IMG/VR virus record: IMGVR_UViG_3300042430_001364
Direction: 5' to 3' (one strand)
Length of the DNA stretch: 20,000 bases
Origin: an uncultured virus (IMG/VR IMGVR_UViG_3300042430_001364)
Taxonomy: Duplodnaviria; Heunggongvirae; Uroviricota; Caudoviricetes
The notes beneath the pieces are model-generated. The model saw nothing but the letters and a program-made list of their open reading frames with translations, did no database searches and was not told where the DNA came from. This document shows, in pieces, positions 7,189-16,538 of the stretch (its first letter is position 1; the number at the start of each line of letters is the position of its first letter). The position numbers were made by a program, and so were the translations under genes.

Positions 7189-7404
7189 ATGTTTCAATAC
7201 ATTATCAAAGGAGATTGTTTTAAAGCCGTAGCTGTTAAATCAGAAATGAATCATATGGAGATGGGGGATTATGTGCGTGAACATAGCAAGAAAATACATA
7301 ACGAATCGTATGATAGGGTATTTTCTCTTGGTGCTATAGATATAGTTAACCCAAAAGTTATGTCTCCTAATGATTTTGCGAATTGTGGACCTTATATTAT
7401 TTAA
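7189..7404 (+). CDS. Hypothetical protein
   Basis: Tiles between its neighbours; AT-rich sequence before the start. Confidence 0.65.
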   Translation: MFQYIIKGDCFKAVAVKSEMNHMEMGDYVREHSKKIHNESYDRVFSLGAIDIVNPKVMSPNDFANCGPYII

Positions 7405-7408
7405 ATTT

Positions 7409-7828
7409 ATGTACGCATCAAACTATAGTAAAAACCTCATTACAGCGGAAGAGAAAGTAGCCGAGTTAATGAAGCAACGTGACGCACGCGAGGCCGAGTA
7501 TATTCGCGGCGCACGAATGGTTGCCGAGTCCGCCTCCGCGTGGCAAGTCCGCGCCGAGAAAGCCGAAGAGCGTCTTGAATGGCTTGAAAGATTTCTTCAA
7601 GCTGGAGGCACGAGCATAAATACCGTGTCTTATTATACTGTTGAAAATCATCCTGATGACACCGATGAAACACGTTTCAATATGCCATTTAAAATCGGCA
7701 TGAGTGTGGAAACTGAGAATCGTGGTTGCTACCGGTGGGTTGAGTTTAGTAACGGCGCAAAAGGTATTTGCCCAGCTATTGATGCCGCTAAAATCAAATA
7801 CGATGAATGGCGGCGAGAACAATTCTAA
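7409..7828 (+). CDS. Hypothetical protein with N-terminal coiled coil
   Basis: Start corrected to 7409 (MYASNYSK...). Confidence 0.75.
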   Translation: MYASNYSKNLITAEEKVAELMKQRDAREAEYIRGARMVAESASAWQVRAEKAEERLEWLERFLQAGGTSINTVSYYTVENHPDDTDETRFNMPFKIGMSVETENRGCYRWVEFSNGAKGICPAIDAAKIKYDEWRREQF

Positions 7829-7893
7829 AAAAAGTCATTAGAAACACTTGACATCTAATGTAAAATAAGTAGGTTCTCTTTTGTTCTTTCACA
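7827..7893 (+). promoter_or_regulatory. Sigma70-like promoter followed by a boxA-like antitermination element
   Basis: A-tract, TTGACA (7848-7853), 16 nt, TAGGTT (7870-7875), predicted +1 near G7883. TGTTCTTTCACA (7882-7893) matches E. coli rrn boxA TGCTCTTTAACA at 10 of 12 positions. Confidence 0.65.
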
Positions 7894-8420
7894 TCTTCCC
7901 TTCTGTGTTTATGCAGACCGCTGTATTCGCGTTTATAAAGTAAGCTCCATGTTGCTACGAAACTGGGTGATCTCTTGAAAAGATTCACGTTTCTTTACAT
8001 CGTTTAAGAATTAGCGCACACAAGTGCATTCATCTTCTGGAAATGTTCTGGAAGACTTGTGTGGCAGGGGGAACCAATTTTGAATAGCAGCTCGGAATGT
8101 AGAAGGTTGTTTCCATCTTCGGTACGAGCACGGGGTCTAACCGTCAGCGGAAAAGCATGGAAGTCACGAAAAGCCTCTGGGTTCATAACAGCACGTTTAT
8201 GGGGAAATGTTAAACGTGTTGGAACCTATGCGTAAATAAGAAACTCGCTGAAGTGTAGTTATATAAAGCAAAACTACATCTATTCAAATAATTTAACATA
8301 CACAGTAGTCCTCTTGATTCACGTCAATGACAATAATGGCTGTGTGCAATTTCCCTACCTGCATTGAAAGTCGGGTTCATCCGTGAAAGCAGAAATGCTT
8401 CTAGGTGCATGGTGGGGATT
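7883..8420 (+). ncRNA. Large structured non-coding RNA of about 540 nt; GOLLD/ROOL-like candidate, family not assigned
   Basis: Only long + strand stretch without an ORF or an antisense gene. It has its own promoter and about 15 nested helices, e.g. 8017-8024/8056-8063, 8079-8087/8280-8288, 8190-8199/8211-8220, 8254-8260/8272-8278, 8352-8359/8411-8418 and a GAAA-capped 8387-8391/8396-8400. It ends 20 nt before tRNA-Trp. Confidence 0.75.
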
Positions 8421-8440
8421 CAATTTAAAATTTAATTTTT

Positions 8441-8515
8441 GCGGACGTGGTATATTAGTAGTGCAGCAGCCTCCAAAACTGCCTTATGAGGGTGCGATTC
8501 CCTCCGTCCGTGCCA
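8441..8515 (+). tRNA. trnW: tRNA-Trp (anticodon CCA)
   Basis: Acceptor GCGGACG/CGTCCGT, discriminator G, encoded CCA. Anticodon loop CTCCAAA; T arm GAGGG-TGCGATT-CCCTC. Confidence 0.9.
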
Positions 8516-8590
8516 ATTTCAAACACGAACTAAAAAATCGCAAATAAGATATACATTAGAACCAAACGCGAACACTTTTAGGGCAAATAA

Positions 8591-9094
8591 ATGATAGAGA
8601 TAGACTTACATCCACAGCTCGTCGCAACCGCATTAGAATTAGCGGAAGATAAGCCAAAATTAAAAAACTCCATACGAGATGGTGATGGCTGGAAAATCGC
8701 CATGATCTCTGACCTAATGGTTCAAGAAGCTCTGGGCGGCGAAATCATTTCTCACGAAGACTACAACTCTGATTGGAAGTCAAACAAAGGAAAACGCTTT
8801 GAGATCAAAGCTAAAGAAAGAACAGTTAAGCCAAAGCCCCATTACAACTGCACCGTTTATCAGTTCAATACCTTACAGAAGTGCGATTACTATTTATTCA
8901 CCAGTATTCTCAAAGACTATTCTAAAGGTTACATTCTTGGTTACATGAATAAAAAATCATTTTTAAATCAATCTTTGAACTGCAAAAAAGGAGAACTGGA
9001 CGAATCTTCTCCTGCTCACAAGCCTTATCTCTATCCAGCAGACTGTTTGAACTTGCGTATCAGTGAACTGCAAAAATTCAGCCTTGGCCAGTAA
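8591..9094 (+). CDS. Putative PD-(D/E)XK (restriction endonuclease-like) nuclease
   Basis: DYNSDW...RFEIKAK (D...ExK) with CDYYLF and GYILGY, a pattern seen in phage restriction-endonuclease-like proteins. Confidence 0.6.
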   Translation: MIEIDLHPQLVATALELAEDKPKLKNSIRDGDGWKIAMISDLMVQEALGGEIISHEDYNSDWKSNKGKRFEIKAKERTVKPKPHYNCTVYQFNTLQKCDYYLFTSILKDYSKGYILGYMNKKSFLNQSLNCKKGELDESSPAHKPYLYPADCLNLRISELQKFSLGQ

Positions 9095-9099
9095 AACCA

Positions 9100-9130
9100 T
9101 TGACAAGCTAGACGCTTTCTGATCTAGCTC
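9100..9130 (+). promoter_or_regulatory. Sigma70-like promoter of uvsE
   Basis: A-tract then TTGACA (9100-9105), 37 nt before ATG 9137. The -10 element is weak. Confidence 0.55.
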
Positions 9131-10710: not shown

Positions 10711-12798
10711 ATGATCATTAAATCCATCCAGAAAAACGTTGTTGAGTCTCACGATTTCAAATCTGAAATCGCTACCATTGATGCGAGCGAGATGCGTTAC
10801 ATTTCGTCTCTTCTTCGTAACAATTATTCCGACACCATTCTCGCCACTGTGCGCGAAACTTGGGCAAACGCTGTTGACGCTAACAGCGCGGCGAATTCTG
10901 CCACTCCAATCAAGATCAGCTTTCCAACTCATCTCGCTCCTACCTATTCGGTGCGCGACTTTGGCGGCGGCTTGTCTGAGGAAGAGTTGTTTGGCCTTTA
11001 CACCAAGTATGGTCGCTCTAGCAAGCGCGGCAGCAACAACGCAATCGGCGGTTTCGGTATTGGCCGCTTCTCTCCCTTGTCTTATACCGACTCATTTACC
11101 GTAGTTTCCTGCAAAGATGGCGAAAAGATCATTATCTCTGTTTATGTGGATGAAAGCGGCGACACTCGCTTTACCAAGCTCGCAGAAGAATCTACCACTG
11201 AGCCAAATGGTGTGGAAATTTCTGTTGCTGTAAAAAACGAAGACATTGCTAAGTTTATCGAAGCTGGTCACAAAGTTTTAAAGTTCACCTCCGCGCCTTT
11301 TGTTTCTTCTGGCATCCAATCTTTGGAAACTCTTGATTGGGTGATAAAGAACAACACTTGGGGTGTATTAAAACATCTTAATAATGGCAGCGTCTATAAT
11401 CGTAGATCAGATTCTCCAGTGATTGTTATGGGCGGCATTTCTTACCCACTTAATCTTGAAATGTTGTCTGATAGACTATCTTCGCTCTCAATCTACAAAT
11501 CTCTCAGAGGTACTAGCGCAGCCTCTTTCTTCGTGTTTTTCTTTCCTGTTGGCTCGCTTTCTCTGCATCACTCCAGAGAGAGTTTAGAGTACAACGAACT
11601 CACTAAAAAGAATCTCGTTTCGTTCTTCTCAAATCTTGAATATGAAATCAGAGAAGTGTTTCAAAAGACTTTAAATGATATTTCAGACGTAGAGCAGTTT
11701 ATGGCCAAGGTGAATAGCATTAGCGACAATTACGTTTTGCAAAATGTTGCTAGTGATATACCAATGATCTTTAACGCCTCTAATGGCGACAAAATTCAAG
11801 TTCAGCCAAACCTCCATTACGAAATTACGCATGGTTATTGCGTTAATCGCAACGGTAATTTCCGAACTATTAGCATTTCCGACAAGAGAAGTCTTAGTCC
11901 TTCACTGTTTTATTCTAACAGCAATTATTGTATTCTCATCGCGGACAAAAAAAAGAGTCTTTTCGCCAAAGCTCGCTGGATTCAAAAAAATTCAATTCTT
12001 GGAGACAAAAAAGGTTTTTCCGTCGTTGTTCTTCCTCCAGAAGAAGCTAAAGCATTTTTAACTTCTTACACTACTTGCAATCGCATTTTCCTTTCTTCTA
12101 CTACCAAAGAATTGAAATCTGATCAGGCGAAGGCTTCTCAGGCTCGCATTGTATTTGCCAAAGCCATTTATGGTTATCGGCCTTTTGTTACTCAAGCTAA
12201 CCTTCCAGAAGGTAAGTTTTATTACGTTAAACTGCAAAACAAAGATCGCCGCTTTTATTGTGAGATTGCTGGTCAAGAATTTACCAGAGATCACTCTTTC
12301 GAGTTCTTTACCAAGCTGCATGAATTGAAAATCCTTGACCAAACTTATGTTTATGGTGTTCAAGATGATTCGGATTTGGGCGACGAAGCAATCAACCTTG
12401 CAACTCTAGTTGAGGATTACATTAAAAAACAATTAAAAATGCACGGTAGCGCAATCTCTCAAAATCTCGAAAACAATTATCGCGCATCTAAATTTAGAAG
12501 TTACGTAAAAAGTATCGCTGATAGGCTTGACAAGAAGCATCCTTTGAATATGTTCTACGGAACTGAACCTGTAACTGATAAACAATTCTCTCTTGAACAA
12601 GAGAGTATTATGGAATTGCTTCGCTTGACCCGCCAATCTTTTTCAGAAACTATTGACAAAACTAAAATTGATGCTGAACATGATGCTCTCGTTAAGAAGT
12701 ATCCAATAGTAATGATGTTCTCAAACTACTATGGTTACCATAACGAAGAGCACTGCAAAAACATGGTCGATTACATTTCCCTGATTGATAAACAATAA
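10711..12798 (+). CDS. rIIA: RIIA-like protein with N-terminal GHKL/HATPase domain
   Basis: Motifs YSDTILATVRETWANAVDA, VRDFGGGLS and SSKRGSNNAIGGFGIGRFSPLSYTDSFTV; directly upstream of rIIB. Confidence 0.9.
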   Translation: MIIKSIQKNVVESHDFKSEIATIDASEMRYISSLLRNNYSDTILATVRETWANAVDANSAANSATPIKISFPTHLAPTYSVRDFGGGLSEEELFGLYTKYGRSSKRGSNNAIGGFGIGRFSPLSYTDSFTVVSCKDGEKIIISVYVDESGDTRFTKLAEESTTEPNGVEISVAVKNEDIAKFIEAGHKVLKFTSAPFVSSGIQSLETLDWVIKNNTWGVLKHLNNGSVYNRRSDSPVIVMGGISYPLNLEMLSDRLSSLSIYKSLRGTSAASFFVFFFPVGSLSLHHSRESLEYNELTKKNLVSFFSNLEYEIREVFQKTLNDISDVEQFMAKVNSISDNYVLQNVASDIPMIFNASNGDKIQVQPNLHYEITHGYCVNRNGNFRTISISDKRSLSPSLFYSNSNYCILIADKKKSLFAKARWIQKNSILGDKKGFSVVVLPPEEAKAFLTSYTTCNRIFLSSTTKELKSDQAKASQARIVFAKAIYGYRPFVTQANLPEGKFYYVKLQNKDRRFYCEIAGQEFTRDHSFEFFTKLHELKILDQTYVYGVQDDSDLGDEAINLATLVEDYIKKQLKMHGSAISQNLENNYRASKFRSYVKSIADRLDKKHPLNMFYGTEPVTDKQFSLEQESIMELLRLTRQSFSETIDKTKIDAEHDALVKKYPIVMMFSNYYGYHNEEHCKNMVDYISLIDKQ

Positions 12799-12824: not shown

Positions 12825-13946
12825 ATGAATAAGCCAGCCTACATTATGCGCGATGATTCCATTACCGTTTTCGTTAATGGTCGTCCTTATACCGTCGAGA
12901 AGTCTAATCCAAACTTCTTTGCTCTACGCAAAGCCTTGATCGACGCGAACTATGCCGATATTCCTAGTCTTGTGAGCGTTGAGCACAAGATCGTCAACTT
13001 CTCTCATGGCAAACTTCGCGTTGCTGATGGCGAAGTGTTCTATGGCACTGAAAAGCTACATGGCGTTGTTGTAACGAAGTTGCTTGAGCTGTTGAAGGCT
13101 GGAGCTAAAGATGCTGAGCCTTTGCTAAACTTCATTAGCAATCTCATGTCTAACGTTTCGGCCAACTCAGTCAACGAACTCTATTCGTTCTTGTCTTACA
13201 AGTCGCTTCCAATCACGCCAGAAGGAAATTTCCTCGCTTACAAAGGAGTTAAAAATGATTTTTATTCCAGCAGCGGCAACACTTCAACCGTTGTTGTTCA
13301 AGGCAAAGTGAACGAATCAGGTCACATCTTGAACGCTATTGGCTCTACTATCGAAGTTGCTCGTCGCTCTGTTGACGACAACAAAGACAATCACTGCTCG
13401 TTTGGCTTGCACGTTGGTAGCTTTGATTACGCTCAGAACTGGGCTGGGCCAACTGGACGTTTGCTCGTTGTGGAGGTTAATCCAGCCGATGCTGTGAGCG
13501 TTCCAACTGACTGCTCTTTCCAAAAACTGCGCGTGAGCAAGTACAAAGTTATCTCTGACATTACTCCAGAGCGCAAAGAGATCAGCGAGCCTATCTATAA
13601 CGAAGGTGATTGCGATGATTGCGACGAGTGCGGCTGCGATAGCGTCGATGATAGTGGCCTCGATAGAGCTGAACGGGTGGACGATAACAACGATTCTCGT
13701 GACATTGATTGGCGTCACGAAGCTATCAAACTTAAAGTTGGCAATTACATCGAAAATGCTATCAACAATGAAATTTATCCATCGTTGTCTAGTATTATGA
13801 ACGATGCTATTAATGGATATGATGTTGAGTACGATGAGCTTGCTGACATCATCTTTGAGTTGGGCTACGACACCAACGAAAACACTCTTCGTGCCGATGG
13901 CTCTCGCGTCAGCACGGATGACGCGGTGATCGTTGAGTCATTCTGA
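12825..13946 (+). CDS. rIIB: RIIB-like protein with acidic C-terminal extension
   Basis: Motifs LYSFL..LPITPEGNFLAYKGV, VDDNKDNHCSFGLHVGSFDYA and VEVNPADAVSVPTDCSFQKLRVSKYKV. Confidence 0.92.
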   Translation: MNKPAYIMRDDSITVFVNGRPYTVEKSNPNFFALRKALIDANYADIPSLVSVEHKIVNFSHGKLRVADGEVFYGTEKLHGVVVTKLLELLKAGAKDAEPLLNFISNLMSNVSANSVNELYSFLSYKSLPITPEGNFLAYKGVKNDFYSSSGNTSTVVVQGKVNESGHILNAIGSTIEVARRSVDDNKDNHCSFGLHVGSFDYAQNWAGPTGRLLVVEVNPADAVSVPTDCSFQKLRVSKYKVISDITPERKEISEPIYNEGDCDDCDECGCDSVDDSGLDRAERVDDNNDSRDIDWRHEAIKLKVGNYIENAINNEIYPSLSSIMNDAINGYDVEYDELADIIFELGYDTNENTLRADGSRVSTDDAVIVESF

Positions 13947-14589: not shown

Positions 14590-14934
14590 ATGAATAGACA
14601 AGACCTGTTTGAGCATCACCAAACGCTCTGCAAGCGAGCGTTTGAGATCATGCAAGCCAAAAACAACGACTATGCTGGGAGCAAAGGCGACGTTCCGTTT
14701 GCCAACTTTCAGCGGTGCGAAGCTATGGGAGTCTGCACTACTGAACAAGGTTTTCTTGTTCGTATCATTGACAAGGTATCTCGTCTTAGCACGTTTGCCC
14801 AAGATGGAAAGCTCTTGGTTAAAAACGAAAGCTATGAAGATGCTATCTTGGACATCTTAAACTACTGCGTCTTAATGTCCGCTTACATCAAAGGTAAGCA
14901 AGAAAGCAAATCAACTGATAGCGATGCCAGTTAA
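14590..14934 (+). CDS. DUF1599 / nucleotide-modification-associated domain protein (all-alpha NTP pyrophosphohydrolase-like)
   Basis: Motifs KNNDYAG, PFANF, VRIIDKVSRL and NESYEDAILDILNY. Confidence 0.75.
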   Translation: MNRQDLFEHHQTLCKRAFEIMQAKNNDYAGSKGDVPFANFQRCEAMGVCTTEQGFLVRIIDKVSRLSTFAQDGKLLVKNESYEDAILDILNYCVLMSAYIKGKQESKSTDSDAS

Positions 14935-15174
14935 TCTATAACCAGCATCAAAAGGTCGAATAAATAAGCCTGTTGGCATTCCCAACACATCAATCTTATG
15001 ATTGTATTCTCTAACTAAATGATCGGAGAAGTCCCCGAAAGTTCCATTGCCAGAAGCAGCGTAACCAGTAGCAGAGTAAAGTCCAGTGATTTGTGTCTTG
15101 TAGCTAGACCAATCTCCAGACACAATGCTATAATTATTATGTATATCTGCTTGTAATAATCGGGGACTATCCAT
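14911..15174 (-). CDS. Hypothetical protein, 87 aa (MDSPRLLQ...)
   Basis: Start set to ATG 15174, 8 nt after GTGTAA. Overlaps the 14590-14934 gene convergently by 24 nt. Confidence 0.7.
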   Translation of the reverse strand: MDSPRLLQADIHNNYSIVSGDWSSYKTQITGLYSATGYAASGNGTFGDFSDHLVREYNHKIDVLGMPTGLFIRPFDAGYRLTGIAIS

Positions 15175-15188
15175 ATTATATATTACAC
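15175..15188 (-). promoter_or_regulatory. GTGTAA motif, candidate late promoter
   Basis: - strand reads GTGTAA-TATATAAT-ATG. Confidence 0.6.
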
Positions 15189-15283
15189 TTAATGTTATCA
15201 ATCTTGATTTTCATAATAGTGCTATGCCACTTATGGAATCGCCCAAACTATTTTACTAGACGAGATCGTTGGTAAAACAATTA

Positions 15284-15358
15284 GCTTCAGTAGCTCAGTG
15301 GTAGAGCACTCGCCTTGTAAGCGAGCGGTCATCGGTTCGACTCCGATTTGAAGCTCCA
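15284..15358 (+). tRNA. trnT: tRNA-Thr (anticodon TGT)
   Basis: Acceptor GCTTCAG/TTGAAGC, D arm GCTC/GAGC, anticodon arm CTCGC-CTTGTAA-GCGAG, T loop TTCGACT, encoded CCA. Confidence 0.95.
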
Positions 15359-15964: not shown

Positions 15965-16387
15965 TTAATTCTTTTTCCTCCATCCATCAGTAATGGAGTG
16001 ACAATTTGGGCAAAGCAATTTTAAATTTAAAGGATCATTATTTGTTCTATTTTTATCAACATGATGAATTTCAAGTTTTATTAGTTGCCCTAACCATTCA
16101 GTATTTTCGCAAGATTCACAAGCATGACCTCTTTCTTTTATTAAATGCGGTTTTACATAAGACGCTCTAGAATAATTAGACCAACCTTTTAATCTCTTAC
16201 CTTTATTCCATTTAGAACCAGTCCAATGAGAAGTATCTATTTCCAATTTCTCTATTAAAGAATGAATTGTGTAGTAATTTCCCCCGACGCATTTTAAATT
16301 TAAATTTCTAAGAAGTTCAGCAATACTCTTGACTTTCTTCGCCAAATCAATAACTTGCTCATCAGTGTAGTTTCTGTATTTTCTCAT
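15965..16387 (-). CDS. Free-standing HNH endonuclease with N-terminal HTH-like DNA-binding domain
   Basis: YTDEQVIDLAKKVKSIAELLRNL N-terminus, CESC, and LEIHHVDKNRTNNDPLNLKLLCPNCH (HNH with Zn finger). Start set to MRKYRNY. Confidence 0.9.
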   Translation of the reverse strand: MRKYRNYTDEQVIDLAKKVKSIAELLRNLNLKCVGGNYYTIHSLIEKLEIDTSHWTGSKWNKGKRLKGWSNYSRASYVKPHLIKERGHACESCENTEWLGQLIKLEIHHVDKNRTNNDPLNLKLLCPNCHSITDGWRKKN

Positions 16388-16401
16388 ACTGTATATTACA
16401 C
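16388..16401 (-). promoter_or_regulatory. GTGTAA motif, candidate late promoter
   Basis: - strand reads GTGTAA-TATACAGT-ATG. Confidence 0.6.
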
Positions 16402-16450
16402 CAATAGGCAATCGTTTCTACTAAAAACTTATCGCATTACAAATCTTTTT

Positions 16451-16538
16451 GGCCGAGTGATGGAACTGGCTATACATAAGCGACTTAAAATCGCTTGCCC
16501 TTTAGGGATTATGGGTTCGACTCCCATCTCGGCTACCA
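16451..16538 (+). tRNA. trnL: tRNA-Leu (anticodon TAA)
   Basis: Acceptor GGCCGAG/CTCGGCT, discriminator A, encoded CCA. Anticodon arm AGCGA-CTTAAAA-TCGCT, long variable arm CCC-TTTA-GGG, T loop TTCGACT. Confidence 0.95.

Follow-up and report, generated by a model that had tools for sequence, protein, structure and literature searches.

RNAs other than tRNAs have been known in phage tRNA clusters since species 1 and 2 of phage T4, a puzzle of about 50 years; host nucleases, RNase P among them, free these two RNAs from a precursor that they share. Their genes, rnaC (species 1, 139 nucleotides (nt)) and rnaD (species 2, 119 nt), lie contiguous with tRNA-Arg on one strand, separated by spacers of a few nucleotides. 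A passage of PMC3014915 states that their 'biological roles are unknown', the relevant part of PMC9697503 lists them as late RNAs that Northern blots confirmed and whose function is unknown, and a section of PMC12685909 mentions a convergent single-nucleotide polymorphism in rnaD of a T4-like phage. Here we describe a row of four structured RNA modules, M1 to M4, in front of a tRNA-Trp gene in a 20,000-nt stretch of DNA from an uncultured Caudoviricetes virus (IMG/VR record IMGVR_UViG_3300042430_001364); this whole stretch is referred to as the window.

Modules M1 to M3 resemble rnaC and rnaD in being non-tRNA RNAs within phage tRNA clusters, on the same strand and with few-nucleotide spacers, and rnaD ends in ..CACCA, like the M1 tail. 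In contrast to M1–M4, which have no T arm, rnaC has a true one; moreover, M1 (177 nt) and M2 (210 nt) are larger than the T4 RNAs, and the RNAs of the window precede their tRNA and have a promoter-like block of their own. A covariance model of M2 (R1) found no match in the T4 tRNA region (L163) at E ≤ 1, with M1, M3 and M4 outside this model test, and Rfam holds no family for rnaC or rnaD. A second point of comparison is provided by GOLLD and ROOL, which the part of bioRxiv 10.1101/2024.12.08.627333 used here presents as single large phage RNAs that occur near tRNA islands and form cages. The RNAs of the window are likewise phage-borne, elaborately folded, often near tRNA islands and of unknown function, whereas GOLLD and ROOL, each a single molecule of about 500–800 nt or more, assemble into homo-oligomeric cages and the window carries four separable modules of 52–210 nt. 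Finally, the portion of PMC10690425 considered here (Fremin and Bhatt 2023) reports 8495 unnamed candidate structured RNAs, some of them tRNA-like, from IMG/VR, which is also the data source for M1–M4; the numbers of six of our contigs were not found in its supplements, three files of which lay outside the search.

The kind of RNA is known (T4 rnaC/rnaD type, a kind and not a homology family), and the M1–M4 families are new and absent from Rfam 15. Our cmscan search (window at the gathering threshold; 7780–8600 at E ≤ 10) returned the tRNA and three chance-level matches. No GOLLD, ROOL or other large-RNA match appeared even at E ≤ 10, which answers a check proposed in a first-pass annotation made from the letters of the stretch. 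No match to 7830–8590 was found by blastn among 50,697 GenBank phage records, and a 17-mer of M2 hit 13 loci in 185,579 species genomes, none beyond 18 nt, so that no bacterial or prophage copy was detected by exact word. Literature searches found no description of the M1–M4 families. We consider it probable that 7848–8519 is a promoter-driven operon encoding four independently folded RNAs and tRNA-Trp, which would be cut apart by the tRNA-processing machinery.

Comparative evidence for folded RNAs on the plus strand

Relatives were collected from IMG/VR through the two flanking proteins (14 and 63 loci), and conserved words extended the search to 18 contigs (M4 word), 34 contigs (M2 word) and 11 contigs (M1 word). 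Thirteen distinct versions of the window's intergenic region were aligned; the nearest record (G001) begins only inside the tRNA. Among the M2-word contigs, 33 of 34 carry M2, and the remaining one (L195) matched the word by chance and has no M2 according to BLAST and the covariance model. Leaving out L195 and four duplicates of the window type, we mapped 29 loci, a set that is not de-duplicated; all 29 contain M2, and the copy in L171 is cut by the contig end. The module alignments comprised 19 (M2), 15 (M1), 20 (M3) and 6 (M4) distinct sequences, and pairing was compared with column shuffles (500 for M2) and with slid pairing partners. Coordinates of the modules and their flanks are collected in Table 1.

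The support from covariation is strong for M1 and M2 and moderate for M4. In M2, whose 54 consensus pairs comprise 1026 cells, pairing reaches 99.6%; shuffles gave 95.4 ± 0.4% (none of the 500 attained the observed value) and slid partners 31–39%. Eleven pairs are compensatory, with 50 cells changed on both sides. The first two arms are formed by 8090–8094/8125–8129 with 8102–8107/8115–8120 and by 8130–8133/8141–8144; the long arm runs from 8146–8150/8245–8249 to 8178–8184/8222–8228 and 8189–8198/8212–8221, and 8253–8258/8274–8279 makes up the last. Linkers at the junction measure 2, 0, 1, 3 and 0 nt, lengths reminiscent of tRNA. A kissing loop is paired in all 114 cells, and two of its positions covary (34/136 with GC 10, UA 6, GU 2 and AU 1; 38/132 with CG 14 and UA 5). 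By analogy, the connectivity of M2 (stem, 2-nt linker, arm, arm, long arm, last arm stacked on the stem) resembles that of an overgrown class II cloverleaf. The covariance model scores 261.8 bits in the window; each array yields exactly one match to it, and the other modules yield none. The hexamer GTGTAG occurs twice in M2 (8097–8102 and 8253–8258), each copy being able to pair with CTACAY (8274–8279); this duplication is a possible alternative pairing or switch, with one stack containing one covarying pair in our scan.

M1 is supported to a similar degree: its 48 consensus pairs are 99.6% paired, compared with 93.1% in shuffles and 36–43% with slid partners, and 13 of them are compensatory (53 cells changed on both sides). 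Within the terminal stem lie a branched arm, 7919–7924/8012–8016, and a long hairpin, 8017–8025/8055–8063 with 8034–8041/8047–8054. The 3' tail has the form A-N-CCA, in which the CCA at 8074–8076 is invariant (15 of 15) and the two preceding bases vary. Four relatives at the locus lack the inner ~80 nt of M1 (7928–8010), and in these a short loop caps the 7919/8016 stem. A candidate additional helix, 7939–7943/7993–7997 (columns 56–60/120–124), has the sequence AAAG/CTTT in the window, which relatives replace by AAGG/CCTT; it would enclose two inner hairpins and competes with a 3-bp (base pair) consensus helix. Both M1 and M2 also contain conserved unpaired stretches.

M4 forms two hairpins, CGGG-TTCA-TCCG (8372–8383) and AAGCA-GAAA-TGCTT (8387–8400), and the second retains a GNRA loop (GAAA, GTAA or GCAA) despite changes in its stem. 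A metagenome scan with the M4 pattern returned 20 loci, of which six contain a real M4, every one of a known type; another match to the pattern, L083, arose by chance. In L089, M4 stands in a different context as the first of several modules. Downstream of that copy, at about 1385–1312 on the minus strand of L089, we noted a sequence shaped like a tRNA, whose T arm and acceptor stem are good and whose anticodon loop has only 3 nt; ARAGORN did not call it. In the gap that contains the modules of the window, ARAGORN and Rfam call only 8441–8515 as tRNA, and none of M1–M4 has a T arm; tmRNA was found in the window neither by ARAGORN nor by an Rfam match.

G-U pairs account for 104 of 1026 cells in M2 (10%) and 102 of 672 cells in M1 (15%). 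Because these pairs would be mismatches on the minus strand, they identify the folded RNA as a plus-strand product, in line with what the first-pass annotation had proposed. Folding energy against shuffled controls, which that annotation had also suggested as a check, is weak on its own: the plus strand folds with a minimum free energy of −149.2 kcal/mol (z −1.84), which 5 of 100 shuffles equal, and the minus strand reaches z −1.72. It is the comparative data, not thermodynamics, that decisively establish the structure. The suggested covariation check was more telling, since compensatory changes were found in homologs of both M1 and M2, and the region 7883–8420 is confirmed as real structured RNA on the plus strand.

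Most of the individual helices drawn in the first-pass annotation also reappear in the consensus. In its domain I, 7919–7923/8012–8016, 7967–7973/7981–7988, 8017–8024/8056–8063 and 8033–8037/8051–8055 were recovered exactly or within 1–3 nt, as were 8079–8087/8280–8288, 8090–8094/8125–8129, 8130–8133/8141–8144, 8145–8149/8246–8250, 8180–8184/8222–8226, 8190–8199/8211–8220 and 8254–8260/8272–8278 in domain II. The helix at 7896–7906/8064–8073 was found with 7899–7906/8064–8071 as its conserved part, and the hairpin 8299–8306/8339–8346 and the 3' three-way junction are likewise present. Two helices were not recovered, namely 7991–7995/8006–8010 and 8155–8159/8227–8231, the latter being replaced by consensus pairs 8163–8165/8229–8231.

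Modules share the setting and punctuation of tRNA arrays

In 28 of the 29 other IMG/VR loci, modules stand amid at least three same-strand tRNA genes within 2.4 kb, and L173 has 13 tRNAs in that distance. The modules are spaced like tRNA genes. One array reads tRNA-Trp (..GCCA), attt, M1 (..A-T-CCA), attt, M2 (..stem plus AATA), attt, M3, aaacttta, tRNA-Asp, with gaps of 4, 4, 4 and 8 nt. All 28 tRNAs from four examined arrays encode CCA followed by a spacer that starts with (A/C/T)TT, mostly NTTT. M1, M2 and M4 end in the same manner, with a terminal stem of 7–8 bp, a short tail (A-N-CCA in M1, AATA in M2, ATTCA in M4) and a T-rich spacer, and in the window M3 and M4 are separated by (A)ATTT. 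Where tRNA-Arg precedes M2, the alignment of M2 starts at the next base, in the T-rich spacer, and the position equivalent to the window's leader (7876–7899) is occupied in arrays by the CCA and ATTT end of the preceding tRNA or module. As the row in the window obeys this array grammar, we conclude that it is a short section of an array of this type, standing behind a promoter-like block that belongs to the window phage.

Further non-tRNA modules of the same build fill other array gaps, three in L173 (reverse complement, 755–1011) and one in L164 (reverse complement, 1035–1199). Such modules show paired ends, a short tail (ATTCA, AATCCA or AATTA) and then ATTT. An array module of ~100 nt has a covarying terminal stem (GAGTAG/CTACTC versus GAACAG/CTGTTC), and gaps of 104–107 nt are present in L177, L169, L171 and L179. 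End-pairing of at least 6 bp was seen in 12 of 20 other array gaps compared with 36% of 380 mismatched controls, a modest excess. No consistent partner gene was found beside M2 in arrays, where the neighbouring ORFs encode an HNH endonuclease, a cytidylyltransferase-like protein and an 80-amino-acid orphan.

The punctuation common to all modules is also what would be expected if they were cis-acting parts of tRNA operons, guiding, timing or protecting the processing of neighbouring tRNAs without a function in trans. M3 fits this explanation, as in 14 of 29 loci its nearly invariant sequence stands no more than 10 nt ahead of tRNA-Asp, as if serving that tRNA. The same module, however, is followed by M4 and tRNA-Trp in the window, by tRNA-Gly in L183 and by tRNA-Arg in three loci. 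The tRNA slot itself (window 8427–8519) is polymorphic: it holds Trp in the window type and Gly(tcc) elsewhere, and in L002 and L004 it is ~84 nt shorter and empty, so these two loci keep M1–M4 without any tRNA to serve. M1 and M2 moreover exceed the needs of a spacer: they are 180–210 nt long, conserve some of their unpaired stretches and include a tertiary contact that covaries. We therefore regard a purely cis-acting role as unlikely and favour RNAs that would be products in their own right.

Modules are separate genetic and structural units

The first-pass annotation had read 7883–8420 as one ~540-nt multi-domain RNA, either a compact GOLLD/ROOL relative or a new class of large phage RNA. 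Its reading of a real structured RNA on the plus strand, upstream of a tRNA and outside Rfam 15, stood up; the single molecule did not, because four self-closed modules are separately present, absent, swapped and reordered, and the kinship with GOLLD or ROOL fell with the lack of an Rfam match and with domains that do not always occur together. At the window locus, the window type and L006 alone have M2, and the other nine versions (L007–L010, L023–L033) carry an unrelated module of ~150 nt in its place. L006 contains an extra module of ~135 nt and lacks M4, and in L012 M4 stands alone. Among the 29 mapped loci, M1 is found in 14, adjoining M2 in 10 and 92–266 nt away in 4, so that 15 have M2 without M1. 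M3 follows M2 directly in 9, lies 280–360 nt after it in 5, stands upstream in 10 and was unseen in 5. BLAST homology between the window and the arrays starts at 7900 and breaks at 8076–8080, 8294 and 8352, which are the module borders, and every consensus helix found lies within a module. Taken together, the whole-module swaps, the border-matched breaks in homology and the intra-module helices indicate that the former 'domains' are separate genetic and structural units.

Two of the exchanged modules deserve a short description. The ~150-nt module in the M2 slot (3512–3663 in L007, with equivalents in L008–L033) has ends that pair as CATCC/GGATG. The extra module of ~130 nt (about 3526–3660 in L006; 602–732 in L176) is bounded by TTACTGCA/TGCAGTAA.

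Some observations nevertheless suit one ornate RNA working as a single molecule. One promoter-like block lies upstream, and a terminator scan found none internal to the module row and none after tRNA-Trp; a 382-nt contig from an RNA library, spanning 7912–8272, crosses the M1/M2 border; and GOLLD and ROOL too are found near tRNA islands in the account of the preprint cited above. A scan for covariation between modules (8 distinct M1-M2-M3 sequences in two clades, hence of little power) gave 9 candidate stacks that were wobble-rich or clashed with supported helices. Given the independent loss, exchange and reordering of modules, borders punctuated like those of tRNA genes, and no large-RNA match, a single large RNA appears quite improbable to us. 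A DNA-level or coding feature (decayed small genes, recombination or homing sites, replication elements) is very improbable: HNH homing endonuclease genes in or near such tRNA regions and modules that behave like recombination units would fit it, but compensatory changes, near-complete pairing with 10–15% G-U that works in plus-strand RNA only, indels among intergenic versions that are not multiples of three, and overlapping open reading frames (ORFs) without a family match all contradict it.

RNA-library contigs and the proposed processing of a putative polycistronic precursor

Six RNA-library runs contain part of the stretch. Contigs from four of these runs, belonging to four studies, cover 7774–7924, 7912–8272, 7967–8272, 8289–8426, 7913–8068 and 7926–8067, the last two being identical to the window. 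These contigs would fit transcription and a precursor that spans M1 and M2, and they agree equally with one RNA and with several. Adapter sequence adjoins their ends at 8272, 7926 and 8067, none of which coincides with a predicted border. The flanking ORF segments 7400–7773 and 8427–9100 had no RNA-library contigs, an absence that is not countable as evidence.

We propose the following course for the operon of four RNAs and tRNA-Trp. The promoter-like block would drive one polycistronic precursor containing M1, M2, M3, M4 and tRNA-Trp. That this transcript is cut in the spacers and on the 5' side of the terminal stems by host tRNA-processing enzymes seems fairly likely: an RNase E-type endonuclease would act in the T-rich spacers and RNase P at the 5' edge of every terminal stem, with trimming of the 3' ends. 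The predicted stable products are M1 (~177 nt, with a CCA end), M2 (~210 nt), M3 (~52 nt), M4 (~70 nt) and tRNA-Trp. Our best guess is that these compactly folded RNAs would use the route of tRNA maturation, like RNAC and RNAD of T4, and that the mature products would act in trans by binding a host or phage factor of the tRNA and translation world; as a speculation, they may be decoys for enzymes that recognise tRNA shape.

RNase P offers a precedent for several of these steps. In the part of PMC11143913 drawn on here, its substrates include T4 dimeric precursors whose spacers are shorter than 5 nt as well as several non-tRNA RNAs, and a 3' CCA is preferred. The precursors of 4.5S RNA, tmRNA and the P1/P7 C4 antisense RNA, as far as that source describes them, resemble the modules in having paired ends and a 3' tail, in some cases RCCA, features that let the enzyme of tRNA 5' maturation process them. 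The modules differ from these substrates in that CCA is present in M1 only, and cleavage of M1–M4 is a prediction.

Several points weigh against this proposal. In the window lineage, as in 9 of the 29 array loci, M1, M2 and M3 adjoin one another in this order, and they may therefore form a functional M1-M2-M3 unit. M3 has almost no covariation (1 covarying pair among 13), which follows from its nearly invariant sequence, and the M4 evidence (24 pairs, 4 compensatory) comes from a small sample of 6 sequences. The CCA tail occurs in M1 alone, where two bases instead of one separate it from the stem, and as none of the modules has a T arm, recognition by RNase P is a guess. With no terminator 3' of the tRNA, the transcript may continue into ORF 8591–9094. 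The RNA-library contigs, finally, are assemblies that are silent on ends, strand and level, and such a library may contain DNA; the one bridging M1 and M2 could stem from a precursor or, equally, from an unprocessed or single RNA.

Table 1 Features of the module row and its flanks in the window
Feature	Position	Strand	Details
Promoter-like block, TTGACA-16 nt-TAGGTT	7848..7875	+	Pattern scan and alignment of 13 intergenic versions
5' leader between promoter-like block and M1	7876..7899	+	Outside the conserved module; array-copy homology begins at 7900
M1 (~177 nt)	7900..8076	+	Terminal 7–8 bp stem 7899–7906/8064–8071
ATTT spacer M1/M2	8077..8080	+	Same (A/C/T)TT(T) spacer as behind array tRNAs
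M2 (~210 nt)	8081..8290	+	Terminal stem 8080–8087/8280–8287; four arms, one junction; 3' tail AATA
M2 kissing loop, 5' half, GTTTCC	8109..8114	+	Pairs with 8203–8208
M2 kissing loop, 3' half, GGAAAT	8203..8208	+	Pairs with 8109–8114
ATTT spacer M2/M3	8291..8294	+	Spacer of array tRNA type
M3 (~52 nt)	8295..8348	+	7–8 bp stem 8299–8306/8339–8346 around hairpin TTGAT/ATCAA
M4 (~70 nt), three-way junction	8353..8422	+	Outer stem 8353–8359/8411–8417, then 8360–8365/8404–8409; tail ATTCA
ATTT and A/T-rich spacer	8423..8440	+	Precedes tRNA-Trp
tRNA-Trp, CCA anticodon, encoded 3' CCA	8441..8515	+	Followed by ATTT 8516–8519; ARAGORN; Rfam tRNA 47.9 bits

Genomic neighbourhood and promoter-like motifs

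The window is phage DNA, with rIIA-like (10711–12798) and rIIB-like (12825–13946) genes as well as a phosphoesterase and an endonuclease assigned through PHROGs, and public runs containing the stretch are lake-water metagenomes. Besides tRNA-Trp, ARAGORN predicts tRNA-Thr (15284–15358) and tRNA-Leu (16451–16538). The structured region occupies a 760-nt gap between ORF 7370–7828 and ORF 8591–9094. More distant relatives of the latter (34–50% identity, 43 loci) showed no intergenic array or tRNA at this site. No supported ORF exists within 7832–8590, where four overlapping ORFs of 54–64 amino acids have no Pfam match; the first-pass annotation was therefore right to see no credible ORF here.

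The block 7839–7880 is nearly invariant among relatives at the window locus in the alignment of the 13 intergenic versions. The pattern TTGACA-N16-TANNNT has four plus-strand sites in the window (2803, 7848, 12527 and 17736) against 0.36 expected, a number reached in 0 of 200 shuffles, and is a candidate for a promoter type shared across the window phage. A stricter consensus scan preferred TAGAAA-16-TAAAAT at 7839–7866 to the placement at 7848–7875. The 16-nt promoter pattern was found in 66 viral loci, 17 of them with similarity to the intergenic region.

Two minus-strand ORFs were noted near the other tRNA genes. ORF 15965–16411 (148 amino acids) stands in an otherwise plus-strand region just upstream of tRNA-Leu and has weak HNH matches (Pfam HNH_3, E 5e-4; HNH, E 3e-3). 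Its product is probably a homing endonuclease, recalling segB of the T4 tRNA cluster; an HNH ORF is also contained in the array locus L167. The second, 14911–15201 (96 amino acids), occupies the gap in front of tRNA-Thr. Ahead of each of the two ORFs stands a TATATTACAC-type motif, as read on the plus strand, which is similar in both cases.

Discussion

The lake phages studied here carry a much richer set of such RNAs than T4, with at least four families at the window locus and more in the arrays. M1–M4 have well-determined folds and are exchanged as cassettes between genomes. M2, with its 210 nt, five-helix junction and covarying loop-loop contact, is a well-defined structural target. If the RNAs are indeed matured by RNase P and act on host factors that recognise tRNAs, phage 'tRNA arrays' would be mixtures of tRNAs and tRNA-shaped effectors.

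A bolder extension, which we hold to be doubtful, is that M2, and perhaps M1, founds a new class of 'super-cloverleaf' RNAs, compact and derived from tRNA, that phages would mass-produce through the tRNA maturation pathway. Speculatively, such RNAs might act in trans on host machinery able to recognise the shape of tRNA, for instance as decoys for defence nucleases that cleave tRNA or for enzymes of processing and modification, or they might be new ribozymes that cut the arrays. If true, this would provide a first functional handle on the puzzle of the T4 RNAC and RNAD RNAs.

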